Counted from the first letter of the stretch, positions 1,213-32,750 are shown. The stretch: DNA of 64,000 bases from Candidatus Nomurabacteria bacterium (GCA_016199805.1 JACQGC010000004.1:106908-170907); one strand, 5' to 3'. The notes: a model not told the origin generated them from the sequence alone. Made by a program: numbers and translations.

Positions 1213-2310
1213 TTAAGGACCAACATGCCAATGATTCCCCTCGTACCTAAATGAAATGCCATCTTTTGAGTACCTTTGGTTAAGAGCCGGAGCTTTTCCA
1301 CCGGTTATGTAGTTGGTCAGGGTAGAATTTACGCCGAGATCTATGGTCGGGCTACCAATTCCGTGGCTGGTGCTTCCGGTTTCTCCACCATGCAGCCAAA
1401 ATTCTGTTCCACCTTGTATGGACAATGCACAGGTGGGGCATTTTTGATGGATGGTGTTTAAGTATGCTGGGTCAAGACCGGCCGTTGATGTGCAACTTGT
1501 TTGTCCAACAGTTGTACACTGTGCATTATATACAGTTGCGCCGCTGTCTGCTAGGTTGGCAAGTGCGCCAGCTCTGGGTGCGTAGGGTTCATTTTTGTTA
1601 TAAGCAAGACCTCCATGGGTATATTGTAATTGACCATTAACTAATGTTCCTGTTTGAGGAATATTATCATTAACTGCCACATCCACTGTCACTGGCGCCA
1701 AACTGTTGAGCTCCGTGCCCAATATGTCCGGATTTATTTGGTATAGGAGTGTCCAGGCGCCAAGGGCCAAGAGCAGACCGAATATGGCGTGAGTTATCCT
1801 TTCCTTTCCTGCTTCTTTCCCGGAAATCAGTTCCGTGGTCATGTATTCTATCCCCCCTATCACAATCATCACTACAGCCAAGACAGCGCAAAGGCCGATG
1901 AATATTCTTATCATGACGTTTAAGTATCCGCCGATTTTGTTTGGGCCGGTAGGGTCAAAAGTTGTCAGTTTGCCGTTTTCATCACATCCGCCAACGCCAG
2001 GTGTAGCACAAGGCAGTGGCGCCAGGAGCACATAAGGCCCCGCCCAAGTGCCACCTTGGCTTGCACAATCAGATTGTATTGTTGGGCCGACATTGTCGCC
2101 TATGGTGCATGTCCCAATCGGGTCGACAAATGTTCCACTGGGGTTTGATACGCTCGCGCAGTCATTTTGCGCCTGCAGTTGAGTAATTCCTGTTTTAGTT
2201 TCACTGGTAATACAATGTTCCAGATTTGTTTCCGCATAAAGAGCGGACAAGGGGCTAAGTATTCCCACCAGTGTAATGATTATTAAAATGTAGTTTATGT
2301 ATTTTCGCAT
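1213..2310 (-). CDS. Secreted/membrane protein: signal peptide, Cys-rich repeat module, VirB2/TrbC-like double-TM hairpin, C-terminal LAS/M15-type metallopeptidase-like domain (putative cell-wall hydrolase)
   Basis: 365 aa. N-terminal hydrophobic leader. Two hydrophobic helices (IFIGLCAVLAVVMIVIGG ... FGLLLALGAWTLLY). C-terminal motifs S-x-H-x-x-G-x-x-x-D (STSHGIGSPTIDLG) and E-x-x-HWH (EGNHWHVGP) resemble VanY/M15 zinc ligands. Confidence 0.45.
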   Translation of the reverse strand: MRKYINYILIIITLVGILSPLSALYAETNLEHCITSETKTGITQLQAQNDCASVSNPSGTFVDPIGTCTIGDNVGPTIQSDCASQGGTWAGPYVLLAPLPCATPGVGGCDENGKLTTFDPTGPNKIGGYLNVMIRIFIGLCAVLAVVMIVIGGIEYMTTELISGKEAGKERITHAIFGLLLALGAWTLLYQINPDILGTELNSLAPVTVDVAVNDNIPQTGTLVNGQLQYTHGGLAYNKNEPYAPRAGALANLADSGATVYNAQCTTVGQTSCTSTAGLDPAYLNTIHQKCPTCALSIQGGTEFWLHGGETGSTSHGIGSPTIDLGVNSTLTNYITGGKAPALNQRYSKDGISFRYEGNHWHVGP

Positions 2311-2350
2311 TTTACTTTATGAACTTTATAACTTTCTACTTTATAACTAC
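2311..2350. promoter_or_regulatory. AACTTTATAA-word motif block immediately upstream of minus-strand gene start
   Basis: ttactttatgaactttataactttctactttataact. Confidence 0.35.
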
Positions 2351-3337
2351 TCAAAAGTTGACATTTATTTCTTTACTTACATTTTCAAAAAGCTTATAAG
2401 TGTTGCTGATTTGCAAGTCTATCTTAGATGTTCCGGAAACTCCGGGTTGCAGTTTGAGGGGCATTAAGTTTTGTTGAAAGCTCTGAATGACGACGGGGCT
2501 GTCATTTATAGACCAACTCCAAATGAGGGTCGGTATTCGTATGTCCCCCGGCGAGATAAAGTATGGTGCGGCCTGGATAGTTTCATCACCGGTCACTTTA
2601 TGTTCGTCTGAAATGGCTTGCTCCCACAAGGTTCCGAGCTGTAAATCATTTTTATAAAATACAATCTTGGGTTGATAGGTGCCTACATCTATACTTGCCT
2701 CAGATGAAGATGTTTGGTCAACCGTACTAGCCACCACATCTATGTTGTTTGAACCGTCCAGATAATCGTTGACATAAGTGAAAGAATTTTTGCCATAACC
2801 GGAACCATCCGGCACATTGGTGTAGTCTTGTTTCCACGTATAAACGAGGTTTGTGGGGTTGGTCGTCTGAGAACCGGACTTTATTTCCGGCATGGCTACC
2901 ACTTTTATCTCACTTTGGGGTGAAGGCAAGGCCTTGCCTTTGTAAAAAGGAGGGACATAAGAGTCATCCGCCTGCCAAAGCAATATCATAACCGAAGACT
3001 TGATTAACATCGTGGTGTTGATGTCGCCATCGGGTAATTTGGTGGTGGCGATGACTGTCGTCTGTGCTCCTGCGGCTGGAGCATTCAAAGAAAAGGATTT
3101 TTTGCCGATTCCCGACAATCCACTCTTGCCGTTTACGGACCAAGATATCAAAACACTGTTTAAGTTGTCCACATAGCTATTTAAAGTGATGGTCACAGTC
3201 TCGCCGGGCGCTGGATTTTGCGGGGCGATATTTACCAAGATGGTGTCGGGAGAAGAAGCCTTTGCTTCAAAGGGTAAAACAACACTTGTTCCCATAAGTG
3301 TGATAACCAAATACAACAATAAGAATCTCAGTTTCAT
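2351..3337 (-). CDS. Secreted hypothetical protein (signal peptide, beta-rich)
   Basis: 328 aa ORF; N-terminal MKLRFLLLYLVITLMGTSVVLPFEAKA signal-like leader; preceded by the AACTTTATAA-type motif. Confidence 0.55.
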   Translation of the reverse strand: MKLRFLLLYLVITLMGTSVVLPFEAKASSPDTILVNIAPQNPAPGETVTITLNSYVDNLNSVLISWSVNGKSGLSGIGKKSFSLNAPAAGAQTTVIATTKLPDGDINTTMLIKSSVMILLWQADDSYVPPFYKGKALPSPQSEIKVVAMPEIKSGSQTTNPTNLVYTWKQDYTNVPDGSGYGKNSFTYVNDYLDGSNNIDVVASTVDQTSSSEASIDVGTYQPKIVFYKNDLQLGTLWEQAISDEHKVTGDETIQAAPYFISPGDIRIPTLIWSWSINDSPVVIQSFQQNLMPLKLQPGVSGTSKIDLQISNTYKLFENVSKEINVNF

Positions 3338-3392
3338 GCTATATAATTATATCACAACTACTTTATAAACTTTAAAACTTTCAACTTTATAA
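3338..3392. promoter_or_regulatory. AACTTTATAA-word motif block
   Basis: actactttataaactttaaaactttcaactttataacta. Confidence 0.35.
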
Positions 3393-5249
3393 CTATTGCT
3401 TATTTTCCACCTGACGAGATTCCAGTTCTTGTTTGGCTTTTTTGTTTGAGAGTATCTGCGAAGGATCGGAGGTAATAATCTGATCTTCGGTATAGGAAGA
3501 AATAATTTTTATGGCCACATGTTTTGTGCCGGCAAAGAATATTCCCTCACCCACATTGGATTCCAAAAGCAAATACTTTTCTTCATCCGTCAGGTTGAAA
3601 GTCTTTTGCAAAAGGTCAATCGTGGTAGGAGATTGTTTCAAAAGAAGCTGGATGGAAGAGTTGGTAATAATCGGCACGCCATAAGGGGAATTCAAAAAGT
3701 CGGCAGCGTCTTGAGTAATGGTGGAAAGTCCCAGGTAATATTTTCGTCCTCTTTTGGCGATGGAATACAAGAATGAGGCGGTATCTTCGGATTTCATCAT
3801 CCACCAGGCTTCGTCCACTACCAAAAGGCGTTTTTTCAAATTCTTACGCACCGCGTTCCAAATGTAATGCATGATGATATACATGGCCACCGGTTTGAGT
3901 TCGTCTTCCATGTCGCGCACCGAGAACACCACGAATTTTTTATTAATATCCACGTTTGAAGGTCTGTTTAAAAACGTGGCCCAAGAACCCTTGGTATATT
4001 TTACCAGTCTTTGCACCACGGAATCACTGCCGTCCATCCCCGAGAGCACCATTTCAAAATCCGATAAAAGTGGAGGTTCGATATTTGCAAAATCGGATTC
4101 CGGAGTTATGTCTTTTATGGCGTAAGTTTCCGAAATGGCGCGGTCCACCATGGAATCTTCTTCCGGAGTCAGCCCCCCGAGCATCAGTCGGAAAAGCCCG
4201 ACTAGGTTTATGATATTTGAACGCAACACGTCTTCAGCGGTTTCATCTTCACGGGGCATCGGCAAATCAAAAGGATTGATATGGTGGTCGGAAGAAAGTG
4301 AAATATTGAAATATCTGCCACCGACGGCTTCGGCCAAAAATTCATACTCTCTTTCCGGGTCGATGACGATGACATCGGTGTCAAACATCAAGGAACGTAA
4401 TATTTCCAGTTTGGTAGCATAAGATTTACCGGAACCGGCCTTGGCGAAAGTCACCGAATTATAATTTTCCAGAGAAAATCTGTCGAAAATAACCAAGCTG
4501 GAATTGCTTCTGTTTACCCCATAGAGAATTCCTTTGTCGGAAGTGAGGTCGGAAGAAATGAACGGGAAGACACTGGACAGAGGCTCGGAATTTAATTTTT
4601 GGTGGATGTTTAGCAGGTCTGTCTCTATCGGAATAACGCTTTTGAAACCTTCTTCTTGCTGGAAAAGGGCTGGTTTGATATATATCAGCTTTGATTCCAA
4701 CATCGATTTTATTTCATTTTCAATTTTGAAAAGCTCGAGTTCATTGTCCGCATAAATGGTGACATATATACCCACATCAAACATCTTTTCCTGCGCTTGA
4801 ATCAGGTTGTCGCGCAAGCCTTCCAGGTCTTGGTAAGCGGTGTCGAGCATCGGGTCGCGCACCATGCCTTTACCTTCACGCACGGAAATCTGGCTCTGCA
4901 CTTCGGCGACTTTTTTCTGAAATTGTCGGAGCATCAGCGAAGTGTCAATCGGATGAACAAAAATTGAAATATCAAAAACCTTGTCCAGGTTGATAATCGG
5001 GGAAAACCAATTGTCGGTTAAAAATCTCGGATAAGATATTATAAAAAATGTGCGGGCAATTTTCTCGCCCAGATTTATGGACTTGGGTTCTATCTTCAGA
5101 GCCGATGGCGCGATGACATCTTCGAGCTCCAGGTTGGCGGACTCGTAAATATCTTCGGGTAAAATAGCCAAAGTAGAAGCCCGGGCCTGGCCCCCGGCCG
5201 ACGTTCCTTGTTTTCTAAATAAATTTTTTATGTTATCTAAAATACTCAT
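3393..5249 (-). CDS. VirB4/TrbE/TraC-family type IV secretion ATPase
   Basis: 618 aa; Walker A FAKAGSGKSYAT, Walker B LLVVDEAWWM; size and motif spacing typical of VirB4-like ATPases. Confidence 0.8.
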   Translation of the reverse strand: MSILDNIKNLFRKQGTSAGGQARASTLAILPEDIYESANLELEDVIAPSALKIEPKSINLGEKIARTFFIISYPRFLTDNWFSPIINLDKVFDISIFVHPIDTSLMLRQFQKKVAEVQSQISVREGKGMVRDPMLDTAYQDLEGLRDNLIQAQEKMFDVGIYVTIYADNELELFKIENEIKSMLESKLIYIKPALFQQEEGFKSVIPIETDLLNIHQKLNSEPLSSVFPFISSDLTSDKGILYGVNRSNSSLVIFDRFSLENYNSVTFAKAGSGKSYATKLEILRSLMFDTDVIVIDPEREYEFLAEAVGGRYFNISLSSDHHINPFDLPMPREDETAEDVLRSNIINLVGLFRLMLGGLTPEEDSMVDRAISETYAIKDITPESDFANIEPPLLSDFEMVLSGMDGSDSVVQRLVKYTKGSWATFLNRPSNVDINKKFVVFSVRDMEDELKPVAMYIIMHYIWNAVRKNLKKRLLVVDEAWWMMKSEDTASFLYSIAKRGRKYYLGLSTITQDAADFLNSPYGVPIITNSSIQLLLKQSPTTIDLLQKTFNLTDEEKYLLLESNVGEGIFFAGTKHVAIKIISSYTEDQIITSDPSQILSNKKAKQELESRQVENKQ

Positions 5250-5299
5250 TTTTGTTTTTACTTTCTACTTTATAAACTTTATAACTTTTTACTTGAAGA
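5250..5299. promoter_or_regulatory. AACTTTATAA-word motif block
   Basis: tactttctactttataaactttataactttttactt. Confidence 0.35.
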
Positions 5300-5953
5300 T
5301 TAAGCTTCCAGCTTAATTTTCCCTTCCAATTCCCCCGGATTGAAAACTTTATAAAATACCTCGACGACTTCTTCGGTGCCGAGTTGGGCGGAATTTATAC
5401 CGCAGCGGCCGAGGCCCTGCTGAATGACGGCGACTCTCTCTTCCAGTTGCGACCTCTTTTCTTCAAAATCCACTTCCTTGGCCACCCGGTTTTCTTCTTT
5501 ACTGCCACCCTTAAAGAATTTTCCGAATATCCCGCCAAATATTCCCGAATCTGATTTTAGAACAGTATGGGTATATGGCACAACCACAAAAAAACTTTTG
5601 GTCATAATGGCTACCGACTCGGTGAAATTTCTGATAAATTCTATATACTCTTTTGTCTGTAGTTTGAGTAAGGGTTCGGTCTGCACTTTTACTCTGTTTT
5701 CCAACAATAACAAATATGGTCTTATGTCCAACTTCCTGGACTGGATAGATACCTGCACCGAAAAATCGAGAGTGTTTAGGAAATTTTGAAATTGTAAAAT
5801 TGTCGCCTTTTGTTCATCGTCTGACTTTAGGGAAAGGTTCACCGAGTTGGCCAAGACGAGCGCCCGCAAGTCGCCGTCTTTTAGAACCACGATGCCGTCG
5901 CGTACTTCTTTGATGGGTATAAACTCTTGTGTTGCTTTTGCGTTTAAGGCCAT
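5300..5953 (-). CDS. Hypothetical protein within T4SS-like cluster
   Basis: 217 aa ORF, co-directional, preceded by AACTTTATAA motif. Confidence 0.5.
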   Translation of the reverse strand: MALNAKATQEFIPIKEVRDGIVVLKDGDLRALVLANSVNLSLKSDDEQKATILQFQNFLNTLDFSVQVSIQSRKLDIRPYLLLLENRVKVQTEPLLKLQTKEYIEFIRNFTESVAIMTKSFFVVVPYTHTVLKSDSGIFGGIFGKFFKGGSKEENRVAKEVDFEEKRSQLEERVAVIQQGLGRCGINSAQLGTEEVVEVFYKVFNPGELEGKIKLEA

Positions 5954-6053
5954 AGATGTCTAGTTAAAAGTTCATAAAGTTCTTAAAGTTATAAAGTTGG
6001 ATTAAAATTAATTTGCATTGTATTTACTTGACGGACTTTATAAACTTTCTACA
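5954..6053. promoter_or_regulatory. AACTTTATAA-word motif block (both orientations, 100 bp)
   Basis: aaagttcataaagttcttaaagttataaagtt ... ggactttataaactttctacattataact. Confidence 0.35.
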
Positions 6054-6482
6054 TTATAACTGATGTTCTTGATTTTTTCTTAAATCAAGAACATCGAGAC
6101 TCCAGGCCAAGTCCCGGAGCTTGCTCCCAGTCAACTTGTTCCCGTATACCGCCTGATCTTTGTTGTCAGTTGTGGCTTGTGGTTGGTTGTTCGCAGACGA
6201 GCTCTTTTTCTTTTTCCAAATATAAAGCTTATTTTGACTGAAATATTTGAACCCGGATTCCAGCATGTTGATAAACGGCTTATTGTTGGGACGGTAAAAT
6301 ATTAGCATACCGGAAAATCCGGCAATCAGTAAAATGGGGATAGCTGCAAAAAGTAGACCGAGCAATTTAAATAGTATGTAGCACAAACCCGCCCCTCCGG
6401 CCAAATAGGCAAATTCCCTAAAGGTGAAAGGGCCAAAAATTTTGTCTTCAATATCCAAAAATTGTGGAACTTTAAATTGCAT
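6054..6482 (-). CDS. Small two-TM membrane protein, PrgI/VirB3-like
   Basis: 142 aa; two adjacent hydrophobic helices (YLAGGAGLCYILFKLLGLLFAAIPILLIAGFSGMLIF) near the N-terminus; sits next to the VirB4-like gene as VirB3/PrgI usually does. Confidence 0.45.
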   Translation of the reverse strand: MQFKVPQFLDIEDKIFGPFTFREFAYLAGGAGLCYILFKLLGLLFAAIPILLIAGFSGMLIFYRPNNKPFINMLESGFKYFSQNKLYIWKKKKSSSANNQPQATTDNKDQAVYGNKLTGSKLRDLAWSLDVLDLRKNQEHQL

Positions 6483-6535
6483 GGGGATGAGTTATAAAGT
6501 TATAAAGTTCATAAAGTTGTAAAGTTAATGCAATA
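6483..6535. promoter_or_regulatory. AACTTTATAA-word motif block
   Basis: gagttataaagttataaagttcataaagttgtaaagtta. Confidence 0.35.
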
Positions 6536-6883
6536 CTAATCCAGAGTTTTAATAAGACCTGATAATAGCTTAGAAATTTCTAGAGTTAAATCATACATTT
6601 TCTTAAAATCTCGTTCTGTAATGTATTTTAACTCCAAACCTAAGTTTAACATAGATCTGACTTCTCCGGCAGACCCCTTGGATATAAATAGAAAGTTTTT
6701 AAGCTCTTTGTTTGTTCGCCTTTCAAAACCTTCAGCAATGTTGTTCATTATTGAAACTGAAGCTCTTTCTATTTGGTTTTTAAAACTATAGTCTTTACAG
6801 CTCTTAAATACTATATAAACATTAATCGTTAAATCTTTTCCTTTTTGCCAAGATATTATTTCCTCAAATTTTTCTATTCGCAT
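6536..6883 (-). CDS. Four-helix-bundle protein (TIGR02436-like; former 23S rRNA intervening-sequence protein family)
   Basis: 115 aa; NIAEGFERRTNKELKNFLFISKGSAGEVRSML motif is characteristic of this family. Confidence 0.7.
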   Translation of the reverse strand: MRIEKFEEIISWQKGKDLTINVYIVFKSCKDYSFKNQIERASVSIMNNIAEGFERRTNKELKNFLFISKGSAGEVRSMLNLGLELKYITERDFKKMYDLTLEISKLLSGLIKTLD

Positions 6884-6930
6884 TTTACTTGATGACTTTA
6901 TGAACTTTTTACTTTATAACTGGACCACTC
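6884..6930. promoter_or_regulatory. AACTTTATAA-word motif block
   Basis: tgactttatgaactttttactttataact. Confidence 0.35.
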
Positions 6931-7935
6931 CTACTCCGGCACCTCTCGGTAAGGATCAACCAAAGGTTTACTTGATGGAGGTGTGGGTGCTGTAATGTTT
7001 GGCAAGGAGTGGTCGGTTTTTACTACCGGCGATGGCACGGGAATAGACATTTTTTGGGCCAAGGCGGGATGAATTGTATTATTACCCTCTTGAGGGGTGG
7101 CTTTAGCCGGGGTGGATAGTTCCAATTTTTCCGGGACGGGCATAGGATTATTCCCCTCTTGAGGGGTGGTGCTTGCGCCGGGGTGGATAGACTTCTTCTC
7201 CGGAATAATTTCAATCCCATGTGTTTTCAGTACGTTTGCGTTACTTACTTTCTGCTCCTCGGTGTCATGTTTTTCTTCGGGTTCCCCCATCTTGGTTCTG
7301 ACTTCTTTTATAATTCTTTGATTAACGGAATTTACGATTGTGTAGGCTATCCCGTCCGGCACTTTCAAAATGCTCTTTATCGCATCCTCGAATTTATCGG
7401 TAGGAACAGTGCCCAAAATCACACTAGTGGTTGTCGTTTCCAGCAGCCCTATTTGTTCCACCGTAAGCCCGTTTTCACTCCCGATGTTATAGATGGTCTC
7501 ATAATAATGCGCTTCTTTGATGTAATTTTTTATTTCTTCCGGTAGTTTCGCGAAACGCTCATCGAGCTCTTCTTCGAAACTTGCCCCTGCATTTCCTTCG
7601 GACCTTATGTTTGCGTCAAACACATTTAGAAGCTCCGGACGGATAGTTTTTATTATCGACTCATTTATTTCGGCGAGAATATTATCCAAAAATTCTTTTT
7701 GCAGACCCAAATCCAATTCCAGATTTTTCTTATATTCATCCAAATGAATTATGCCGAGCAAAACCAGAGTCATTTCCGTGCCCAAGGTTTCTTGTTGAGC
7801 CTTGGTCAGGTCGTGTTTGGTGCTGATTTGCTGCAATGTCTCCAGCCATTTCATACTGGAAAATATTTCCTGCAATTTGGGTGTAAGTTTTGAGTAATAT
7901 AAAGCAACATTTTGTTGTAATTCTGTTTTATCCAT
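6931..7935 (-). CDS. Hypothetical protein with C-terminal Pro-rich tail containing a tandem ATPQEGNN repeat encoded by a palindromic DNA repeat
   Basis: 334 aa; two copies of the CCCCTCTTGAGGGGTGG...GGGGTGGATA element lie in-frame at 7084-7190. Confidence 0.55.
   Translation of the reverse strand: MDKTELQQNVALYYSKLTPKLQEIFSSMKWLETLQQISTKHDLTKAQQETLGTEMTLVLLGIIHLDEYKKNLELDLGLQKEFLDNILAEINESIIKTIRPELLNVFDANIRSEGNAGASFEEELDERFAKLPEEIKNYIKEAHYYETIYNIGSENGLTVEQIGLLETTTTSVILGTVPTDKFEDAIKSILKVPDGIAYTIVNSVNQRIIKEVRTKMGEPEEKHDTEEQKVSNANVLKTHGIEIIPEKKSIHPGASTTPQEGNNPMPVPEKLELSTPAKATPQEGNNTIHPALAQKMSIPVPSPVVKTDHSLPNITAPTPPSSKPLVDPYREVPE
7084..7119. repeat. Type D palindromic repeat CCCTCTTGAGGGGTGG...GGGGTGGATA (copy 1, in-frame in the 6931-7935 gene)
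   Basis: accctcttgaggggtggctttagccggggtggata. Confidence 0.55.
7153..7190. repeat. Type D palindromic repeat copy 2 (in-frame)
   Basis: cccctcttgaggggtggtgcttgcgccggggtggatag. Confidence 0.55.
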
Positions 7936-7963
7936 AAATTATCTGATATTTATTATCAATTCT

Positions 7964-10519
7964 TTAATGATGGTCTGGAGCATGCGCGCTAGCCGTCGGG
8001 CCGTGCGCTGCTCCATGTCCTCCACCCCCATCTCCCAATTTCACATCTATCTTCGCGTGTTTTAGCGAATCACTGATTGTCTGACCAAGGTCCTTGAATA
8101 TATTTCCTTGAGGAGAGCCAGCTTCAACTCCGGCTCCTTTCTTTAGTCCGGCCCTCATTCCAAGCGCTACCGCAGAAATGATGCCAATAGTTGCTTTTGC
8201 GCCCAATCCCTCTCTCTTGTCTGCCGTTAACCCAGGTATATTTCTTACATCGTAAGTTCCACTTGTTGTTCTGGACGCTATTCTTGTTCCCATTCCCACT
8301 TTTTGCTGTGCTTCTTCTTGAAGTTTTGTAAACCTTTCTTTCCCTATTGATTGGGTTAGATTTTTCAATACTTCATTAAATTCTTTATTTAATTTATCTT
8401 CAACCTGCTTTCTTCCTTGATCATTCAACTCGCCCGCTGCGTCAATACTGTTAGGATCTGTTCTCTTTGTTTCATTTATAACATCTTGACGTCTTTTTAC
8501 TTTGTAATCATTCTCACCTTTTGCGTTTATGATATTGCCATTTACGTCTTTCTCGATAAGAACATCTCTGTTTTTGGCATCATAACCTCTCTTGATGTCT
8601 GATTCTACCTCTGACCTCTTTTCTTTCACGAATGTCTTTTCTATCTTTTCTTGTTCTACTCCAGAGAGGAATTTATCTCCTACTCCTTCGAGTCCTGCTT
8701 TTTTCTTTACTTCATCTATTTCATGTCTTGCGTGGTCTATTTCTCCTGACCTAGATTGAGCAGCGTTAATTCTTCCTCCTATTGCATCTACTCCACTGAT
8801 TTTTACTCCAGGATTTTTAGCTTCATAAGCCTTTTTTGACCCCTCCCACGTAGGCTTGGCCCCGGTCTTTCCTCCACTCTCCCATTTATCTAGTTCCCTG
8901 TTGTGCTCAATCATCGCCTTTCCGTAATGTTTTGCTCCTTCTGTTCTTGAAGTCGCCGCGGCTCCTCGGGCGATTAGTGTTCTTCCAGCAAAAGCTGCAC
9001 CCAAAGCAGTTCCGCCAACAGCTAGACCACCCAATACTTTTGCGCCAGCAATCAAATCCTCGGTGTATTTTCCGGACCCCTCCTTGGCAAGTTTTGTCGC
9101 CTTAAGAAGAAGACTGATGATTACCGCGGCTGGAAGCAAGACGAGAATGATAGTTTCTATCGATCCCACATCGGCTCGGTTGGAAGTGACTGCGAGGTCG
9201 TTAAAAATATTTGACCTTATCAACATAAATATCAAATACAACATAAACATAAAAGCCGGAGCCATAAACGCGGCTCCGAGCAGGCGCTTCAGCCAGGCTT
9301 CCCATCCCCAACGGTCAATACCGCTTAGCTTGGGCAAACTTGAAGACATAAAAGCAAAAGGCGCGGCAATAATCAAAACCCAGAGTTCTACCAGACGTCC
9401 GAGGAAACTCATGCCTGACATAAAGAGCGCATAGGCGGCGAAGAGCATTATTAATCCCGATATAAAAATAATTCCTAAAATCATTGGAGTTGGGATTTCT
9501 TCCGGGGACGGGTACCAATAACCATAAATTGCCCTGGGTATAAAATATATTGGCGCAGCGACAATATTGGCGGCGCTTATCAATGTCGAGCTGGTTGTCG
9601 CCGGCACTACCTGTGTTTTATTTTTAAGCTTGTCAAAAAAACCTTGGGTTAAAAATTGGGATGGGTCAAAAGCGGAGACCATACCGCCAGAAATATCTTT
9701 CTGGTCATATTTTGTAGCGGGGACATATGGTCTAGGGGTTATTGTCCCGTCCGGATTTTTTGTGTCCACATTTAATTTATTGTAAAAAACCAAAGCCAGA
9801 GCATTGGAAGTATCAATAATTACTTCGGTGAAAAACATACTAAAATTTATCAGCAAGGCCATGATTATGACCTGCACGATTATTTTTTTGGAATCATGCC
9901 CTAAATCCAAAATAATTTGGATGGCGACATAAAGTAAAATCAAAATAAAGAAAATATTTGAAAGGTCCCGCACGATGCCCCAAGCGGCGGGGATAAAAGT
10001 AGACCCGGCAAACAAGGTACTGCTCAAGGTCATAGATATCAAAACATTGAATAGTTTTGCCGCGACGATAAGCAACAAAGATGGAACGCCATAAAAAACA
10101 AAGAAAGCTATTTTTTGTATACAACCTTCAATGCTACCAGTTCCAATAACGTCACATTTTTTAAGGTTGTCTACTAAAGCATTGGTCGATGTTGGTGTTG
10201 TAGTTGCGGTTCCATTTACATTGGTTGTGGTTGTGGTGCCATTCGCGTTAGTGGTGGGTGGGTTAGGGGTAACATTTCCATTTGCTGGGTTGCAAGTTTG
10301 ATCTATCACAGACTGAGGCTGTTTTCCTGATAGTCGTGCTCGACATTCTGCTTCTGTTTCAGCCCGCGCTTTTCCAGCCGAAACAAAAGTTCCGGCTAAA
10401 ACCATAAGGAACAAGAATCCCAGTACTAAAATTTTACTTTTAGTTTTTGGTTTTAATTTATTTTTATCCTTTGTCGTCATCATTATTGATTTAACTTTAC
10501 AAACTTTAAAACTTTTCAC
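7964..10519 (-). CDS. Polytopic membrane protein, TrbL/VirB6-like, with Thr-rich N-terminal region and charged C-terminal tail
   Basis: 851 aa; signal/TM at the N-terminus, Thr-rich low-complexity segment, at least 6 hydrophobic helices in the middle, long Lys/Glu-rich C-terminal domain. This architecture is typical of VirB6/TrbL homologues. Confidence 0.5.
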   Translation of the reverse strand: MKSFKVCKVKSIMMTTKDKNKLKPKTKSKILVLGFLFLMVLAGTFVSAGKARAETEAECRARLSGKQPQSVIDQTCNPANGNVTPNPPTTNANGTTTTTNVNGTATTTPTSTNALVDNLKKCDVIGTGSIEGCIQKIAFFVFYGVPSLLLIVAAKLFNVLISMTLSSTLFAGSTFIPAAWGIVRDLSNIFFILILLYVAIQIILDLGHDSKKIIVQVIIMALLINFSMFFTEVIIDTSNALALVFYNKLNVDTKNPDGTITPRPYVPATKYDQKDISGGMVSAFDPSQFLTQGFFDKLKNKTQVVPATTSSTLISAANIVAAPIYFIPRAIYGYWYPSPEEIPTPMILGIIFISGLIMLFAAYALFMSGMSFLGRLVELWVLIIAAPFAFMSSSLPKLSGIDRWGWEAWLKRLLGAAFMAPAFMFMLYLIFMLIRSNIFNDLAVTSNRADVGSIETIILVLLPAAVIISLLLKATKLAKEGSGKYTEDLIAGAKVLGGLAVGGTALGAAFAGRTLIARGAAATSRTEGAKHYGKAMIEHNRELDKWESGGKTGAKPTWEGSKKAYEAKNPGVKISGVDAIGGRINAAQSRSGEIDHARHEIDEVKKKAGLEGVGDKFLSGVEQEKIEKTFVKEKRSEVESDIKRGYDAKNRDVLIEKDVNGNIINAKGENDYKVKRRQDVINETKRTDPNSIDAAGELNDQGRKQVEDKLNKEFNEVLKNLTQSIGKERFTKLQEEAQQKVGMGTRIASRTTSGTYDVRNIPGLTADKREGLGAKATIGIISAVALGMRAGLKKGAGVEAGSPQGNIFKDLGQTISDSLKHAKIDVKLGDGGGGHGAAHGPTASAHAPDHH

Positions 10520-10535
10520 TTTATAACTAACCCCC
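10498..10535. promoter_or_regulatory. AACTTTATAA-word motif block
   Basis: ttaactttacaaactttaaaacttttcactttataact. Confidence 0.35.
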
Positions 10536-10675
10536 TCTATTTTAGCACTCTTTTTGTTTTTTTACCCTAATTTTCTGTGTATATGTATGCTTTTCGCTTG
10601 ACATTTGTGATCTATTTGCTATACTTTGTATACAAATGGCTTCGGCCTCGCCCCGCGCAAGCAGGGCAAAATAAT

Positions 10676-11068
10676 TCAGTCAAACAAGAGCGCCTTCAGG
10701 GCGCTCTTTAGTTGAGAGAATAATTTCTCATCAATCATTCCGATTTTTCTAGTTAATCTCCTAATATCGATAAGTCTTATTTGGGAAAGAATAGCACTGG
10801 CATCACGATTTTCTAATTTACCTAAGTAAAAATAATGTTTCCCTTTTTTTATTTTACCGGTCAATGCGATCGCTAAGAAAATTTCTCGATTGAAACCCTT
10901 AATGACAATTATCGGTCGGTCAAAATTCTTACCCGTGCCGTCTTGTTCATTTCCGACATTTACGCCCAAAGAGCACCACCAAACTTCTCTTTCATGGTAG
11001 AAGACATTTGGTTTTTGTTTATGGATTGTTTTTTTATCGCTATTCCATTTGTCAAAATCTTTTTGCAT
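10676..11068 (-). CDS. PemK/MazF-family endoribonuclease-like toxin (no adjacent antitoxin found)
   Basis: G-x-EQ-x-G-x(4)-RP-x-I-V then SQIRLIDIRRLTRKIGMIDEKLF matches the MazF/PemK pattern. The track ORF (to 11137) starts upstream inside the palindromic repeat; the internal Met at 11068 is the more likely start. Confidence 0.5.
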   Translation of the reverse strand: MQKDFDKWNSDKKTIHKQKPNVFYHEREVWWCSLGVNVGNEQDGTGKNFDRPIIVIKGFNREIFLAIALTGKIKKGKHYFYLGKLENRDASAILSQIRLIDIRRLTRKIGMIDEKLFSQLKSALKALLFD

Positions 11069-11084
11069 TGATTTTTTGTATTTA

Positions 11085-11129
11085 TTCCCCTCTTGAGGGG
11101 TGGCTTTTGTAACCAAAAGGCGGGGTGGA
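11085..11129. repeat. Type D palindromic repeat copy 3 (at the 5' end of the MazF-like ORF)
   Basis: cccctcttgaggggtggcttttgtaaccaaaaggcggggtggatg. Confidence 0.55.
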
Positions 11130-11144
11130 TGTATCAACTTTATT

Positions 11145-13058
11145 TTAATTTTGTACCCAGGTTATGTTGTTGCGTATGTTGGGCCCGCAGCTGGCTTCTG
11201 TGATATTGGTTGTTGTCGTGCCGTCGGGATAAGTGCAAGTGCCATATGGAGCCCATGTTCCTGCACCCACAGGAGTATTTGCGCAGTTGGCTTGGGTTGT
11301 ATTTTGAAGTGGGGTGCCATTGACGATGCAAGCACCGAGCGGGCCGGTAGTGGTGGTCACTGTCGGACTCCAGTTTCCGCCCAAGGTTGTGCATTCTGAT
11401 TGTTTGGTATTGTTTACTGGGCTGCCGCTTATGGTGCAAGTTCCAATCAGGTCAGTTACTCCAGTAACCGGCGGGGCCACAGTTGTAGCTGTTGGAGTTA
11501 TTGTAATTGGAAGAATTATAACTTTGGCCGGAAGAGAAGAATCTTGAATAGTTACTAGGGCATTTCCTGCAGCTACGCCAATGACAGTTATGGTGGAGCC
11601 CTGAGCATACACGGTTGCAAATTGCGGGTCTGTGGGGTTCCATGTTCCTGCTCCGCTGGTAGTTGCCGAACAAGCAGCTTGAGTAATATTTTGTGTTGTT
11701 CCAGCTCCGCCATTGTCACAATTTCCCAAAAGAATGTAGGGAGGAGTGCCGCCAGAAATGGTTATGTTGTTGACGGCATTGCCGGGAAAAACAGAGACAC
11801 TGGTTGGGCTGACAGACAAAGGACCGCCAGTGATTGTTGTATTTGTGCCAGCGCTGCCTCCGGTGGTATTTGTAACCAAGGTGTTTCCTTGATAACTCCA
11901 AGAGTCTGTGGAGGAACTGCTTCCATTTATGGCATTACCTAGGGCGTTCAAACCTTGATCTAAAAAGTGACTAACCAGAGTATTTAGAATGGCGCTCAAG
12001 CTGCCTTCCACCATGGAGCCTAGAGCGGTCTGGTCTATATTTGAACCCAAAGCCTTGAATACCTGGTTGGCTGCCACCGCGCCAGGGGTTGTGTTTACTA
12101 ATCCATTTGAACCATCAGCTTTTTTACATTCATTCTTTTTACTCCAGTCAGATTTTTCTGTTGCGAGGTCTCTCTGGTAATTTGCATTTACTTGAGCAAT
12201 ACAATCACTTACCACTCCAGGTGCACTTTTAGAACCAACTGGACCATAACAGGCGTCTATTCTAGCTGTGAGATTTGAATCCAGATTAGATTGAAAAGCT
12301 GGCCTGTTGAATTCATTGTATCCATTATTGTAATTTGGGTTTACGTCATTTGGGCAAATTTGCGGAGACAAGAAGCCCATACCCTGATTTAAGGTGGTGT
12401 TTATTTTTTGCGCGGCGTTTTGGGTTGTACCTTGGAGTTGGCGGGCGAGTTTATCTGTGGCGAGCATATCAAAACCCAAATAATTATTTTGCGGATATTG
12501 TGTGTTGACAAGGAATCCATTCCATCCGCCGGCGTTGAAATTGTTTCTGTAGTTTTGCGCCATTATCGGGCTCATCACTGCCGAGAGCGAATAGGCCGCA
12601 TTTGAATCGGCCGCTGCTTTGTATCTGTTTATTACGTTTAGGGCAAAATTTTGACCATAAGGGAATCTGTTTGGGTCGTAACCGAATTCACCGACAATAG
12701 TTTTAATTTCGGATTTGGCGATGTCGTGAAAGAAAGAATCGGAATTGGTCAGAAAGAGCGGAGAGCCGTGGAAGCCACTATTGATCCAACCGGTAATGCC
12801 CTTGGTCAGTTCTTGAAGTAATCTCTTTTCAATAACCATCACTACTTGCTTGGCTATAGCGATGAGCGCATTTACCACAACATTGCCAGTCTCTATGGTT
12901 TGTGGAACCCCAACACTTAGTCCAACTACTGATATAAGAGTTGGGTCTATCACTACCCACTGCGCTTGCGCCTGCTTGGGCCCAGAAAACAAAACAGCCG
13001 GAAGTATTATCAATATGAGCAACAAAGCTGAGATTAATTTTTTATTTTTTTCTTTCAT
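11145..13058 (-). CDS. Large secreted protein with C-terminal Cys/Thr-rich repeats (possible surface or pilus-tip/adhesin component of the T4SS-like system)
   Basis: 637 aa; signal peptide; three C-terminal repeats of G-x-C-(T/I)-x(8-12)-T-x(3-5)-C-x(5)-G-x-W, shared with the N-terminus of the 1213-2310 protein. Confidence 0.6.
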   Translation of the reverse strand: MKEKNKKLISALLLILIILPAVLFSGPKQAQAQWVVIDPTLISVVGLSVGVPQTIETGNVVVNALIAIAKQVVMVIEKRLLQELTKGITGWINSGFHGSPLFLTNSDSFFHDIAKSEIKTIVGEFGYDPNRFPYGQNFALNVINRYKAAADSNAAYSLSAVMSPIMAQNYRNNFNAGGWNGFLVNTQYPQNNYLGFDMLATDKLARQLQGTTQNAAQKINTTLNQGMGFLSPQICPNDVNPNYNNGYNEFNRPAFQSNLDSNLTARIDACYGPVGSKSAPGVVSDCIAQVNANYQRDLATEKSDWSKKNECKKADGSNGLVNTTPGAVAANQVFKALGSNIDQTALGSMVEGSLSAILNTLVSHFLDQGLNALGNAINGSSSSTDSWSYQGNTLVTNTTGGSAGTNTTITGGPLSVSPTSVSVFPGNAVNNITISGGTPPYILLGNCDNGGAGTTQNITQAACSATTSGAGTWNPTDPQFATVYAQGSTITVIGVAAGNALVTIQDSSLPAKVIILPITITPTATTVAPPVTGVTDLIGTCTISGSPVNNTKQSECTTLGGNWSPTVTTTTGPLGACIVNGTPLQNTTQANCANTPVGAGTWAPYGTCTYPDGTTTTNITEASCGPNIRNNITWVQN

Positions 13059-14090: not shown

Positions 14091-14168
14091 AACCCCCTAA
14101 ATCCCCCTTATCAGGGGGACTCCTGAATTTTTCCTCCCCTGACAAGGGGAGGCTAGGAGGGGTTGTAT
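14091..14168. repeat. Type A GC-rich double-hairpin element (CCCCCTTATCAGGGGGA + CCTCCCCTGACAAGGGGAGG), overlapping the ksgA 3' end
   Basis: aaccccctaaatcccccttatcagggggactcctgaatttttcctcccctgacaaggggaggctaggaggggttg. Confidence 0.55.
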
Positions 14169-15013
14169 TCTTCTGCAAGCTTGAGCCAGTCTTCCAGGGT
14201 CAAATCTTCCGCTCTTTTGTCCTTCATTTCTTCTGGTAAGACAAATTTTTCGTTTTTTAGGGCTTTTAGATTGCCGGAAAGCTTTTTTCTCTTGTGCGCA
14301 AATCCGGTTTTTACTATTTCCCAGAATCTTTGTTCGAAACCCTCCCCTCCTTTCGGAGGAGGGGTGCCGAAGGCGGGGTGGTGGTTTAGTGAGGGGAGAA
14401 AATTCTTCCTCGAAATATTTTTTATCAAAATCACCGCCGAGTCCACTTTCGGGGCTGGAGAAAAATATCTGGCCGGTACCTTCATTATCATTTTTGGCTC
14501 GCCATAAGCTTTGACAGAAATGGAAAGTAAACTTTCTTTTCCTCCCCTCCTTTCACCCGAGGGGCCGGGGGTGGTGATTCTCTTTGCCACTTCATTTTGG
14601 ACCATGAGCACCATACGCTCCGGCTGGCGCTCGGAAGTCAAAAACTTTTTCAAAATTGCGCCGGTGATGTTGTAAGGAATATTGGCGATTATTTTGTATT
14701 TCTCTCCCCCTGCTAAGGGGGAGATTAAGAGGGGGTCAAAATCCAAAATATCTTCATTCAGTAATTTTAATTGCCCGGATAAAATTTCTTTTTCAAATTT
14801 GGTTTTTAAAAACCCGAAAAGTTCGTAATCTTTTTCTACAGCTATAAGCTGACAGCTACTAGCTAGAAGCTTTCTGGTGAGTGCGCCTTTGCCGGGGCCA
14901 ATTTCCAAAACTGTGTCGCCCGGTTTCAAATCTCCTGCTTCTACGATTTTTCGTAATGCCGGTTCAGATTTCAAAAAGTTTTGCCCGAGAGATTTTTTTG
15001 CTTTGTGTATCAC
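14153..15013 (-). CDS. rsmA: 16S rRNA (adenine1518/1519-N6)-dimethyltransferase RsmA/KsgA, carrying three in-frame GC-rich palindromic insertions
   Basis: SLGQNFL motif, Rossmann-fold SAM-binding region. Insert-encoded peptides are TPPPKGGEG, PGPSGERRGGK and LAGGEKY. Confidence 0.85.
   Translation of the reverse strand: MIHKAKKSLGQNFLKSEPALRKIVEAGDLKPGDTVLEIGPGKGALTRKLLASSCQLIAVEKDYELFGFLKTKFEKEILSGQLKLLNEDILDFDPLLISPLAGGEKYKIIANIPYNITGAILKKFLTSERQPERMVLMVQNEVAKRITTPGPSGERRGGKESLLSISVKAYGEPKMIMKVPARYFSPAPKVDSAVILIKNISRKNFLPSLNHHPAFGTPPPKGGEGFEQRFWEIVKTGFAHKRKKLSGNLKALKNEKFVLPEEMKDKRAEDLTLEDWLKLAEEYNPS
14338..14398. repeat. In-frame GC-rich palindromic insert within ksgA (1 of 3; others at 14541-14576 and 14701-14736)
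   Basis: ccctcccctcctttcggaggaggggtgccgaaggcggggtggtg within otherwise AT-rich coding sequence. Confidence 0.5.
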
Positions 15014-18676: not shown

Positions 18677-18754
18677 CAACCCCCTAAATCCCCCTTATCA
18701 GGGGGACTCCTGAATTTCTCCTCCCTTGATAAGGGGAGGTAGGGAGGGGTTGTA
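18677..18754. repeat. Type A GC-rich double-hairpin element copy
   Basis: caaccccctaaatcccccttatcagggggactcctgaatttctcctcccttgataaggggaggtagggaggggttg. Confidence 0.55.
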
Positions 18755-31842: not shown

Positions 31843-31883
31843 GCCTCACCCCTGGCCCCTCTCCAGAGTACTGGCGAGGGGAA
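31843..31883. terminator. GC-rich palindromic element type B (CCTCACCCCTGGCCCCTCTCCAGAGTACTGGCGAGGGGAA); bidirectional terminator-like between convergent murI and xth
   Basis: Stem CCCCTCTCCAG/CTGGCGAGGGG; three further copies at 32710, 34177 and 56702. Confidence 0.5.
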
Positions 31884-32709: not shown

Positions 32710-32750
32710 CCTCACCCCCTGCCCCCTCTCCAGATTACTGGCGAGGGGAG
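32710..32750. repeat. GC-rich palindromic element type B copy
   Basis: cctcaccccctgccccctctccagattactggcgaggggag. Confidence 0.5.

Follow-up and report, generated by a model that had tools for sequence, protein, structure and literature searches.

Results

The Type D unit and its surroundings

The window, the whole 64,000-nucleotide stretch of the Candidatus Nomurabacteria bacterium genome that was analysed, contains a gene at 6931-7935 that sits in a type IV secretion-like cluster and, at higher coordinates, a PemK/MazF-family gene. The palindrome CCCCTCTTGAGGGGTGG is found at 7084 (with one mismatch, A replacing the first C), 7153 and 11087, and each copy is followed by GGGGTGGAT after a gap of 8, 10 or 18 nt. 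This unit, designated Type D, is thus present three times, always on the plus strand, against a chance expectation of 0.03, in agreement with the original prediction of a palindrome in three copies. The relevant features, including a distant relative of the unit, are as follows.

6931..7935, minus strand: host gene of copies 1 and 2, encoding a 334-aa protein of unknown function
7079..7216, plus strand: tandem periods, two of about 69 bp (23 codons), each comprising the unit and a flank coding (V/I)PEK
7081..7116, plus strand, antisense to the host gene 6931-7935: Type D copy 1, 36 nt, covariance model E=5e-10; Y arm aCCCTC (7084-7089), loop TT, R arm GAGGGG (7092-7097); linker TGG plus CTTTAGCC (7098-7108) with mini-hairpin GGCT-TT-AGCC; mirror tail GGGGTG (7109-7114), then GA; translated STPAKATPQEGNN
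7150..7187, plus strand: Type D copy 2, 38 nt, covariance model E=2e-12; Y arm CCCCTC (7153-7158), R arm GAGGGG (7161-7166); linker TGG plus TGCTTGCGCC (7167-7179) with mini-hairpin GGTGC-TT-GCGCC, containing one G.T pair (plus strand); mirror tail GGGGTG (7180-7185), then GA; translated SIHPGASTTPQEGNN
10676..11068, minus strand: PemK/MazF-family coding sequence, 130 aa, start codon ATG (11068-11066), with copy 3 upstream and outside the gene
11084..11129, plus strand: Type D copy 3, 46 nt, covariance model E=6e-14; Y arm 11087-11092, R arm 11095-11100; linker 11101-11121 with 6-bp mini-hairpin CTTTTG-TAAC-CAAAAG; mirror tail GGGGTG (11122-11127), then GA
14340..14382, plus strand: distant Type D relative, in frame in ksgA, covariance model E=0.05; layout CCCCTCCT-ttcgg-AGGAGGGG-tgccgaaggc-GGGGTGGT

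The 334-aa protein is composed of a conserved N-terminal domain, a hypervariable linker that carries both units, and a conserved C-terminal motif. Because this motif (HPxLxQKLS..VKTxHSL..DPYREIPE) is kept in 24 homologues, 6931-7935 is a real gene up to its stop codon. Translation confirmed that copies 1 and 2, whose starts are 69 bp apart, are in frame and give a tandem peptide (...STTPQEGNN...KATPQEGNN...). Likeness between the two 69-bp periods continues into both flanks, which suggests an in-frame tandem duplication of old date and fits the earlier description of the unit as recombinogenic. Most orthologues of the protein lack the unit, and others carry it at another position in the linker.

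Copy 3 had been assigned to the 5' end of the MazF-like reading frame, an assignment that fits only the maximal ORF from TTG 11137. PemK/MazF proteins have a modal length of 130 aa and invariably start with M-x-KDFDxWN, the NCBI call at this locus is also 130 aa, and the rare homologues with longer N-termini have unrelated extensions. These observations place the MazF start at ATG 11068 and therefore copy 3 in a 76-nt intergenic spacer (11069-11144), where it is central, with 15 nt to the upstream stop codon and 15 nt to the MazF start. Residence in coding sequence, originally claimed for all three copies, is thus retained for copies 1 and 2 and lost for copy 3. The four closest MazF homologues have no unit upstream of the gene.

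An inner hairpin and a mirrored tail

The Type D consensus is (A)ATTC-CCCTC-TT-GAGGGG-TGG-(variable mini-hairpin)-(G)AC-GGGGTGG-A. Conservation ends abruptly at ATTC (5') and A (3'), bases outside the search pattern, and the junction bases are alike across phyla; the identity of P1 and the tail across phyla is partly a product of the exact-match search pattern. With a covariance model trained solely on other phyla, each window copy was recovered on the plus strand, at E values between 6e-14 and 5e-10. The outer stem forms the perfect hairpin originally described in copies 2 and 3, and is 5 bp long in copy 1. As a Watson-Crick DNA fold, copy 3 reaches -10.4 kcal/mol (z=-3.3), and the two copies inside the gene, at -4.1 and -4.7 kcal/mol (z=-0.7 and -0.3), do not stand out.

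The N8-18 spacer of the first description is itself a small hairpin, a feature overlooked there. Among the matches listed, the spacers comprise 96 distinct sequences with about 60 distinct stems. Each of the four modelled pairs in this inner hairpin has undergone double compensatory changes, and 98% of cells are paired. Covariation is strong, scoring 0.315, compared with 0.076 after shuffling (0/500) and no more than 0.04 after sliding. Template-switch (quasi-palindrome) mutation can also yield compensatory changes in DNA hairpins without selection. The spacers are strand-asymmetric as well, with GAA, GTA or GCA loops in 43 and TTC in 3 among the matches listed. GNA triloops with C:G closure are a hallmark of stable DNA mini-hairpins.

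Also overlooked was the nature of the second GGGGTG: this 3' tail is the purine arm GAGGGG in mirror image, with G matched by G and A by A or T. With Type D left out, asymmetric arms of 7 nt or longer are followed by a mirrored tail in 31 of 100 strand-instances, or about 31 of 50 hairpins, compared with 4 for direct repeats and 1.8 for permuted arms. The rule extends to 22 distinct arms besides that of Type D, from 17 loci. Units with a GAGGAG arm (Type D') carry the tail GAGGTG in place of GGGGTG in 6/6 cases. The Type D tail taken alone admits another reading too, a shifted direct repeat of GGGGTGG; the mirror reading is adopted on the basis of the other families and of the D/D' comparison. 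Facing A:T pairs, the third strand has T in 52 cases and A in 39, as fits a purine motif on the G strand and not a pyrimidine motif on the C strand. The window as a whole contains 15 perfect matches (14 non-overlapping units) against 0.1 in shuffled sequence.

A structured RNA made from one strand, whether a cis-regulator, small RNA, terminator or mRNA-stabilising hairpin, would account for the two hairpins, one of them clearly covarying, and for the position of copy 3 and several others in 5' leaders (rplJ, rpsL, MazF). We consider it very unlikely. Rfam 15 gave no match at the units even at E<=10, gathering scores in the window being reached by four tRNAs only. The G-rich strand is antisense to all three neighbour genes in the window, and elsewhere units take every orientation, lie between divergent genes or are buried deep inside ORFs; a U-tract is absent from most copies. 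The GNA triloops closed by C:G point to DNA mini-hairpins, and T facing A:T fits a purine-motif triplex, which does not form in RNA (PMC4666352).

Constraint on DNA and not on peptide

At least 116 loci carry Type D. They represent about 12 phyla, with cultured Bacteroidota among them (Pedobacter, Flavobacterium and Parasediminibacterium isolates); the surveyed loci were chosen for intact units and are biased towards well-preserved copies. Outside the window the unit is intergenic or genic, on either strand relative to genes, and is read in five frames over two strands. Neighbours of intergenic copies are co-directional, convergent or divergent. Among the matches listed, ORFs of 80 aa or longer, ksgA and nusA among them, hold 38% of copies, and ORFs are modestly enriched in units whose length is a multiple of 3 (10/23 vs 10/51, p=0.03). 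Genic copies occupy loops or linkers of variable sequence; most are antisense, and most use the one hydrophilic frame free of stops, ATPQEGN. Copies thus occupy unrelated genomic contexts, and different sites within orthologous genes.

The ksgA unit of the window lies at the exact site of a Type D' plus Type D pair in four other CPR genomes. At this site four genomes share one partner unit with 100% identity across 35 nt, whereas flanking synonymous positions are 44-58% identical and near saturation, and the inner loops and spacers of the units differ. Such same-site copies in several genomes represent long-term vertical inheritance, which is also compatible with a host function. In one case the unit substitutes for a ksgA loop of similar length and is not added to it.

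These data bear directly on the reading of ATPQEGNN as a functional motif, an ancient coding repeat under peptide-level selection. The ATPQEGN frame does dominate in long host ORFs (18/26) and several genomes share the peptide at one ksgA site, but copy 3 and most copies elsewhere are non-coding, and genic units are read in five frames, counting both strands. Each window copy has the distal half (ATCCACCCC) in a frame of its own, giving IHP, STP or HPP. The peptide is missing from most orthologues, and synonymous positions are invariant within the ksgA-site unit and variable in the flanking conserved codons. The converse pattern, a peptide kept without conservation of the DNA, was looked for and not seen. 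The peptide-level reading is effectively refuted. Conservation at the DNA level, as originally proposed, is borne out by the mixed frames, the non-coding copies and the ksgA partner unit; together with the varied contexts and the absence of units from most orthologues, these comparisons indicate that the constraint acts on DNA, not on peptide.

The 100% identity of the ksgA partner unit between near-saturated flanks, the identical junction bases across phyla and the excess of perfect matches in the window could likewise reflect a host-beneficial DNA signal, selected even inside genes through its fold or a conserved binding protein; a replication or repair pause site, a recombination signal and a nucleoid-protein site are examples. 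Such a signal is improbable in our judgement: position and orientation relative to genes are inconsistent, orthologous sites are often empty, the choice of loci with intact units favours well-preserved copies, and experiments on relatives in E. coli found no function (PMC4666352). We saw no evidence for the unit as a regulator of host genes.

Mobility

The mobility suggested in the original prediction is putative. Neither target-site duplications nor terminal inverted repeats were seen at Type D units, some copies are old and vertically inherited, and no transposase-like family turned up repeatedly among the 388 ORFs lying up to 1.5 kb from units. A Pfam scan of the 150 nearest-neighbour ORFs at 87 loci returned 157 families, none in more than 3 members, and no recurring Y1/HUH family. 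Classification as a MITE was rejected on the lack of terminal inverted repeats and on flanking direct repeats that do not exceed the A/T-rich background.

These surveys also weigh on a REP/REPIN-like origin, in which a single-copy HUH transposase (Y1, RAYT or IS200/IS605-type) acting in trans would read hairpins on single-stranded DNA and the mirror tail would be a recognition or guide sequence and not a triplex strand. This reading accommodates the strand-specific single-strand features, the sharp unit ends with conserved junction bases, the inverted pairs of two sub-types observed for Type D (compare REPINs and BIMEs) and the identical copies within single genomes; the cross-phylum sequence would follow naturally if a horizontally transferred enzyme dictates it. 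Nevertheless, no transposase family recurs in either set of neighbour ORFs, the GTAG-type 5' tetranucleotide is absent, and protein recognition leaves unexplained why many unrelated arms each have their own mirror tail (G to G, A to A or T). We regard a REP/REPIN-like element as unlikely, although a single-copy gene acting from another part of each genome may exist.

REP, REPIN and BIME repeats resemble Type D in being hairpin units of 20-50 bp, mostly between genes, with inverted doublets and single-strand features; Type D differs in the missing GTAG-like head, and no RAYT gene was found near units. REPs are species-specific in sequence and extragenic by definition. Cyanobacterial small dispersed repeats and the GC clusters or double-hairpin elements of fungal mitochondria are tiny GC-rich hairpins that appear to move with no obvious transposase, can be nested within other repeats and at times persist inside genes; in sequence and host they are unlike Type D. 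To our knowledge, a mirror-image third segment has not been described for these cyanobacterial and mitochondrial repeats.

Discussion

The evidence favours Type D being a short DNA repeat, non-coding by origin, of the class II intrastrand triplex kind, and on the sequence data we hold this to be probable. Membership in this known repeat class, across many phyla, had escaped the original prediction. The order that defines class II (5' Y arm, R arm, 3' reverse-Hoogsteen arm) is present in all three window copies as CCCCTC...GAGGGG...GGGGTG on the plus strand. Predicted mirror triads (G*G:C, A*A:T or T*A:T) number 6/6 in copies 2 and 3; copy 1 has an intact mirror tail and 5 intact triads, its outermost stem pair being lost to the A-for-C change. 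Of the published definitions of class II, ITxF sets a minimum stem of 6 triads with loops of 1-6 nt, and that of Hoyne requires more than 7 triads with loops of 0-10 nt. With a stem of 6, the ITxF minimum, and a second loop of 11, 13 and 21 nt in the window copies, Type D falls outside these limits, and published searches would have missed such units. The hairpin in loop 2 shortens the effective connector, so that Type D would act like a class II motif beyond the published definitions.

The closest known systems are BoxC, PIT and TMECO (Hoyne et al. 2000; Holder et al. 2015, PMC4666352). Like Type D, these consist of a Y arm, loop, R arm, loop and mirrored G-rich segment, are G/C-rich in a lower-GC background, occur in many copies per genome, form inverted doublets of two sub-types (A+B pairs) and are associated with local rearrangement; they have no transposon, phage or plasmid link and no fixed relation to neighbour genes. 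Their single strands form triplexes by CD and NMR (Holder 2015, PMC4666352). In TMECO, the relative studied in most depth, the triplex escaped detection by DMS footprinting in vivo, and the search for promoter, terminator or other activity was negative (PMC4666352). Other families in the window (loop 2 = cta, ccg, tag, tta) closely fit this architecture. Type D does not match the TMECO consensus (CCCTCNCCC-N3-6-GGGNGAGGG-N3-GGGNGAGGG), which has 9 triads compared with 6, and is of the same kind but of another family. Its second loop, at 11-27 nt, contains its own covarying hairpin, unlike those of BoxC/PIT/TMECO. In addition, TMECO is proteobacterial and "always intergenic" in E. coli, in contrast to the phylum range and genic share of Type D, and the triplex demonstrated for TMECO is predicted for Type D. 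The hairpin within loop 2, the multi-phylum spread and the in-frame residence in CPR genes are new.

Rickettsia palindromic elements (RPEs; PMC10969869) provide a precedent for the last of these, being palindromic and in frame in unrelated, often essential genes of a reduced genome; they are viewed as selfish DNA that adds a peptide segment without impairing the protein (Ogata et al. 2000, 2002; reviewed in PMC10969869). RPEs are about 100-150 bp, MITE-like and confined to Rickettsia, whereas Type D is 36-50 bp and cross-phylum, lacks terminal inverted repeats or target duplications and has a triplex-type mirror tail. Assignment of Type D to the RPEs was rejected: in-frame residence is shared, and size, sequence and host range differ.

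In the class II model, when the G-rich strand becomes single-stranded the CCCCTC and GAGGGG arms would pair as a hairpin and the third segment, GGGGTG, would lie antiparallel in its major groove via G*G:C and T*A:T triads. The freely varying small hairpin would serve as the connector that returns the third segment to the stem. The predicted triplex has 6 triads only (5 in copy 1), and its first loop is very short. What is conserved would be the DNA fold and its junction bases (ATT 5', TGG, AC, GA 3'), and no peptide. Units may spread or be copied via a structure-dependent DNA process; as a conjecture, a polymerase may stall at the folded single strand, with template switching or gap repair to follow, since known relatives block polymerases in vitro and are tied to local instability. 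The 69-bp tandem duplication in 6931-7935 could be a product of the same process. Selection in a gene-dense CPR genome would then retain only copies in spacers or in disordered protein segments with a tolerable frame.

More tentatively, and with doubt outweighing confidence, the fold may have been selected across about a dozen phyla and the triplex may form in cells where DNA is transiently single-stranded, which would make Type D a hairpin-bridged sub-class not recognised before, with structure-primed, transposase-free copying or a conserved DNA-metabolic function. The window genes with in-frame units of the intrastrand-triplex kind include ksgA and nusA; if this proposal is true, Type D would have been absorbed in CPR bacteria as permanent loop segments of the essential KsgA and NusA.

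Three Type D copies and their host genes

Type D is a 36-46 bp DNA repeat in which a pyrimidine arm (CCCCTC), a loop, a purine arm (GAGGGG), a connector hairpin and a tail (GGGGTG) follow one another. Three matches to its 17-mer CCCCTCTTGAGGGGTGG lie in the window, the source of which is a Candidatus Nomurabacteria (CPR/Patescibacteria) genome. All of them are on the plus strand, at 7084 (one mismatch), 7153 and 11087, compared with 0.03 expected from dinucleotide shuffles, confirming the threefold occurrence first reported; GGGGTGGAT follows each of them after a gap of 8, 10 or 18 nt. The copies are housed in a T4SS-like/conjugation cluster on the minus strand (1213-13058).

Type D copies and genes of the type IV secretion-like cluster
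1213-2310, minus: T4SS pilin-like gene
3393-5249, minus: TraG/VirB4-like ATPase
6054-6482, minus: PrgI-like gene
6536-6883, minus: PF05635 gene
6931-7935, minus: 334-aa gene
7081-7116, plus: Type D copy 1
7150-7187, plus: Type D copy 2
7964-10519, minus: 851-aa multi-pass membrane protein
10676-11068, minus: PemK/MazF-family gene
11084-11129, plus: Type D copy 3
11145-13058, minus: 637-aa secreted protein, DUF4141 N-terminus

Copies 1 and 2 lie inside the minus-strand ORF 6931-7935. The C-terminal motif HPxLxQKLS..VKTxHSL..DPYREIPE of its product is kept in 24 homologues, which identifies the ORF as a real gene up to its stop. As originally predicted, the pair is read in frame, giving ...STTPQEGNN... 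and ...KATPQEGNN... in a gap-rich, hypervariable linker of the protein. Similarity between the 69-bp periods reaches both flanks (...CCGGGA-unit-GGATAG...TTCCGG, coding (V/I)PEK), and the two inner hairpins are substitutions and a 2-nt indel apart. The simplest reading would be that a single unit underwent an old tandem duplication, in frame and 23 codons long, which agrees with the slippage and instability described for intrastrand-triplex repeats. Watson-Crick folding energies of these in-gene copies are unremarkable.

Copy 3 had been taken for the 5' end of a 153-aa MazF ORF, making all copies coding; this did not hold. PemK/MazF proteins have a modal length of 130 aa and an N-terminus that is always M-x-KDFDxWN, the NCBI call for the window gene is likewise 130 aa, and the few longer homologues carry unrelated N-terminal extensions. 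These features place the start at the ATG 11068-11066. Judged by this family comparison, copy 3 is non-coding and central in a 76-nt spacer upstream of MazF, and the 153-aa ORF is an upstream read-through artefact.

The MazF gene is solitary within the cluster, with no antitoxin ORF adjacent. A 45-nt AT-rich repeat of (A)CTTTAT/TAAAGT sub-repeats stands ahead of every gene of the cluster, filling the gap directly between one gene's stop and the next gene's start (2304-2348, 3350-3394, 5257-5301, 6017-6061, 6877-6921 and 10484-10528). Inverted copies are at 5968-6001, 6496-6529 and 33822-33855, some of them on either side of the PF05635 gene, and a similar leader, 'gtaaagttcataaagttgaaagtt', stands before a MazF homologue of another genome (L118). 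The repeat resembles a promoter, leader or operator module shared by these genes. The PF05635 gene encodes a 23S-rRNA-intervening-sequence-type four-helix bundle with weak bAvd similarity. It is the next gene downstream of the 334-aa gene in each of three genomes (the window, L117 at 2595-2975 and the P0011 contig), and because of this synteny it appears to be a stable cluster member rather than a stray cassette. A link between Type D and this gene was rejected, since despite the synteny it is not recurrent near units elsewhere.

Distribution and anatomy of Type D

Scanning one genome per species with the pattern CCCTCTTSAGGGGTGG-N4-24-GGGGTGG (chance expectation below one match), a search that favours intact copies, located Type D at at least 116 loci. 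The matches listed include Nomura-, Pacei-, Sacchari- and Gracilibacteria within the Patescibacteria; Bacteroidota, with cultured Pedobacter, Flavobacterium and Parasediminibacterium; Ignavibacteriota/Kapabacteria, Thermotogaceae, Bacillota, Nitrospirota and Chloroflexota; Verrucomicrobiota, Cloacimonadota and Planctomycetota; and one MAG each under the labels Simkania and Hyphomicrobiales. Binning error may explain some of the single-MAG assignments, so the count of about 12 phyla is an upper estimate. Inner hairpins and partners of the diverged form D' at L001 and L071 (Simkania MAG) and at L012 and L038 (Hyphomicrobiales MAG) are identical to those of Patescibacteria contigs; ACTTTGTACTCAAAGGAC, for example, also occurs in L063 and L077. 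The contigs with these two labels may be mis-binned CPR contigs.

Alignment of 129 copies from the matches listed defined the edges of the unit. Near-invariance begins abruptly at 5'-ATTC, outside the search pattern, and conservation ends one base past GGGGTGG, at an A. Neither terminal inverted repeats nor a target duplication was found at these copies, and MITE-type insertion was rejected on that ground. The N8-18 spacer is itself a hairpin: among the matches listed there are 96 distinct spacers with about 60 distinct stems, nearly all self-complementary. A covariance model seeded with 18 copies, all from genomes other than that of the window, found the window copies on the plus strand (E = 6e-14, 2e-12 and 5e-10) and one weak relative besides, at 14339-14384. 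In the model-based alignment of 150 copies, 98% of inner-hairpin cells are paired and compensatory double changes occur at 4/4 modelled pairs, in 16-66 sequences each; the covariation score is 0.315, versus 0.076 in shuffled controls (0/500) and at most 0.04 in slid controls. Template-switch correction can be a source of such covariation in DNA. Spacer hairpin loops are strand-asymmetric, with GAA/GTA/GCA in 43 spacers versus TTC in 3 among the matches listed, an indication that the fold matters on the G-rich strand.

In two genomes the core lies within longer, genome-specific repeats. Those of the Bacillota MAG Th196P3bin37 (L004, L019, L024, L033, L044 and others) have flanks aaccgttaaaaaATTC...GGGGTGGaaagaaaagc; those of a Thermotogaceae MAG (L002, L003, L009, L020 and others) have flanks taaaacaagcatttg...ttgtttta and possibly inverted termini. 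The Type D core seems to be a module reused within larger lineage-specific repeats.

A role of Type D as RNA is the least likely of three rival explanations. Rfam has no family at Type D at the gathering threshold, nor at E<=10 around the copies, so a known RNA family was rejected, and RNA does not form purine-motif triplexes (PMC4666352). An intrinsic terminator was rejected because units are located between divergent genes and deep in ORFs and generally lack a T-tract.

A mirror-image tail and a proposed triplex design

In D', the purine arm is GAGGAG (versus GAGGGG) and the tail is GAGGTG (versus GGGGTG), in 6/6 cases from six genomes. As the tail changes with the arm, this second run of Gs is more than a simple repeat. 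Purine-motif triple helices follow the antiparallel rules G·G:C, A·A:T and T·A:T. Every pyrimidine-arm/purine-arm hairpin in about 0.87 Mb of fetched sequence was checked for a tail mirroring the purine arm 0-20 nt downstream; Type D was left out, and an arm counted if it was asymmetric and 7 nt or longer. An exact mirror tail (G to G, A to A or T) was present in 31/100 strand-instances, or about 31/50 hairpins, compared with 4 for a direct copy of the arm and 1.8 for permuted arms. The mirror-tailed hairpins comprise 22 distinct arms at 17 loci, most commonly with a 3-nt connector.

Examples of mirror arms and tails
AAGAGGGGGA / AGGGGGAGTT
AGGAGAGGGG / GGGGTGAGGT
GGGAGGGA / AGGGTGGG

Opposite A:T pairs, the third-strand base is T 52 times and A 39 times, a usage that fits a purine motif on the G strand and not a pyrimidine motif on its complement. 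T in the tail would put A into a would-be pyrimidine third strand; a pyrimidine-motif triplex on the C-rich (mRNA-sense) strand is therefore disfavoured. A G-quadruplex was also rejected: Type D has two GGGG runs only, and many sister families with A-rich arms (e.g. AAGGAGAGGA / AGGAGAGGTT) cannot form one and still follow the mirror rule. By NMR, the related repeat TMECO is a triplex, not a G4 (PMC4666352).

The window contains 15 perfect matches to the triplex design (14 non-overlapping units; arms of at least 6 nt), versus 0.1 in shuffles, with three inverted pairs among them. A composite of about 87 nt, made of two different triplex-type units inverted head-to-head, occurs three times between genes, in the arrangement of the inverted A+B pairs reported for TMECO in E. 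coli (PMC4666352). Another mirror-rule family, CCCCTCTCC-agtaatct-GGAGAGGGG-tcg-GGGGTGAGG, is G-rich on the minus strand; only its copy at 34178-34215 is perfect, the others being slightly degenerate.

Further triplex-type units in the window
14092-14163, 18679-18748, 56748-56828: composite of about 87 nt, inverted units, intergenic
31843-31881, 32710-32748, 34177-34215, 56702-56740: CCCCTCTCC family, G-rich strand minus

Units inside genes are constrained as DNA

Among the matches listed, 49/129 Type D copies fall in ORFs of 80 aa or more; 35 of these are antisense and 14 sense. ORFs of 200 aa or more read the unit as ATPQEGN in 18/26 cases, with four further frames on both strands, and the frame of the distal half varies between copies. 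The antisense strand of the conserved parts is stop-free in every frame and ATPQEGN is its most hydrophilic reading, so this frame bias is as expected from selection on random insertions. Unit lengths in ORFs are no more than modestly enriched for multiples of three (p = 0.03), and a clean fixed-length insertion, weakly supported, was not adopted.

The closest relatives of the two host proteins share no more than 48% and 76% identity with them. In the 334-aa orthologue of another Nomurabacteria genome, a full Type D and its D' partner lie elsewhere in the linker, before the AGIEI motif, the window's units being after it, and the unit upstream of MazF is absent in the four closest homologues (72-76% identity).

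The essential genes ksgA and nusA contain related units in frame.

Triplex-type units in ksgA and nusA
14153-15013, minus: ksgA/rsmA (16S rRNA dimethyltransferase KsgA)
14340-14382, 14544-14573, 14703-14736: ksgA units, in frame
59972-61168, minus: nusA
60884-60920: nusA unit, in frame

The ksgA units encode LNHHPAFGTPPPKGGEGF, TPGPSGERRGG and DPLLISPLAGGE. Set against solved KsgA structures, the insertion amounts to about 13 extra residues at one site and about 5 at another; at the remaining site the unit stands in for a loop of similar length. The nusA unit, CCTCCCCCT-tacta-AGGGGGAGG-agaaa-GGAGGGGGT, is within the NusA N-terminal domain, which with the unit spans 158 residues versus 119 positions in the Pfam model (peptide ...PLPGLPLTKGEEKGGGE...).

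At the first ksgA site, four other CPR genomes have a D'+D pair at the exact position, and the window has a different family member; at a second site the orthologue L047 is empty. The 35-nt D', which is outside the search pattern, is 100% identical in the four genomes, versus 44-58% for third positions of flanking amino-acid-identical codons; the inner loops and inter-unit spacer differ. It follows that DNA and not peptide is under constraint, as the original prediction had proposed, and the converse pattern, a peptide conserved without its DNA, was not what the comparison revealed. The proposed mobility stands in part: the ksgA comparison also shows that some copies are old and inherited, so that 'mobile' would be just part of the story.

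Relation to known intrastrand-triplex repeats

Intrastrand-triplex repeats of the BoxC/PIT/TMECO kind date in the literature from the 1990s; to our knowledge, they have no accepted function and there is no evidence of the triplex in vivo. The 'class II intrastrand triplex motif' was first seen as BoxC, then as PIT elements (Hoyne et al. 2000) and then as TMECO (PMC4666352). Single-stranded TMECO forms a very stable triplex by CD and NMR (Holder et al. 2015, PMC4666352). The fold was undetected in vivo by DMS, and TMECO has neither promoter nor terminator activity and no link to transposons, phages or plasmids; in E. coli it is always intergenic, and it marks loci unusually rearranged among strains (PMC4666352). 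Type D has the same class II architecture but a different sequence and only six triads, and, unlike BoxC/PIT/TMECO, a second loop of 11-27 nt forming a hairpin of its own. With loops limited to 6 or 10 nt, the two published searches would have missed it. Our keyword searches of the literature for CPR palindromic repeats and the raw motif returned nothing relevant.

On sequence grounds, Type D is a new hairpin-bridged variant of this class, conserved across many phyla, and in gene-dense CPR genomes elements of its class live inside essential genes. The earlier description of a DNA element tolerated in frame was largely right but incomplete, having missed the triplex class. As far as the alignments show, Type D is a structured repeat at the DNA level with conserved arms, tail and junction bases, and its bridging hairpin is kept as a hairpin only; reading frame and what the protein tolerates act as a filter on its copies. 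The comparative pattern provides evolutionary evidence that the three-stranded fold itself is preserved, because many unrelated arm sequences each have their own mirror-image tail, arm, arm and tail covary three ways in one case, the bridging hairpin varies freely yet remains paired, and DNA identity outlives synonymous-site saturation. These data lend themselves to a natural test of whether selection acts on triplex folds.

We infer that the G-rich strand, when single-stranded during replication, repair or DNA uptake, could adopt a hairpin-triplex, and that this putative fold would underlie both the local instability and a putative copying process of Type D. Mobilisation by a trans-acting REP/RAYT-like system is the likeliest of the three rivals, but transposases and HUH nucleases are not recurrent neighbours of the units: 388 neighbour ORFs clustered all-vs-all gave none, and the 150 nearest ORFs at 87 loci, scanned against Pfam, gave none among 157 families, no family having more than three members. 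Both analyses returned diverse housekeeping genes only. A host-beneficial DNA signal is less likely than a REP/RAYT-like system. A phage vector for cross-phylum spread was rejected, the unit being present in 1 of 2.9 million viral contigs.

Apart from the putative hairpin-triplex itself, such units matter for gene calling, where they create spurious N-terminal extensions such as the window MazF ORF, and for protein-family alignments, where they appear as odd low-complexity inserts (ATPQEGN or SPLEEYPLGGGG); they also bear on the origin of new protein loop segments. Six MazF homologues of other genomes (P0108, P0133, P0151, P0160, P0190 and P0201) have C-terminal extensions ending ...NSLPPLARGRGRSHL/M. 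It looks as though the reading frame there runs on into another kind of GC-rich hairpin unit adjoining the MazF 3' end, in which case gene ends, and not just interiors, would be affected by such repeats.
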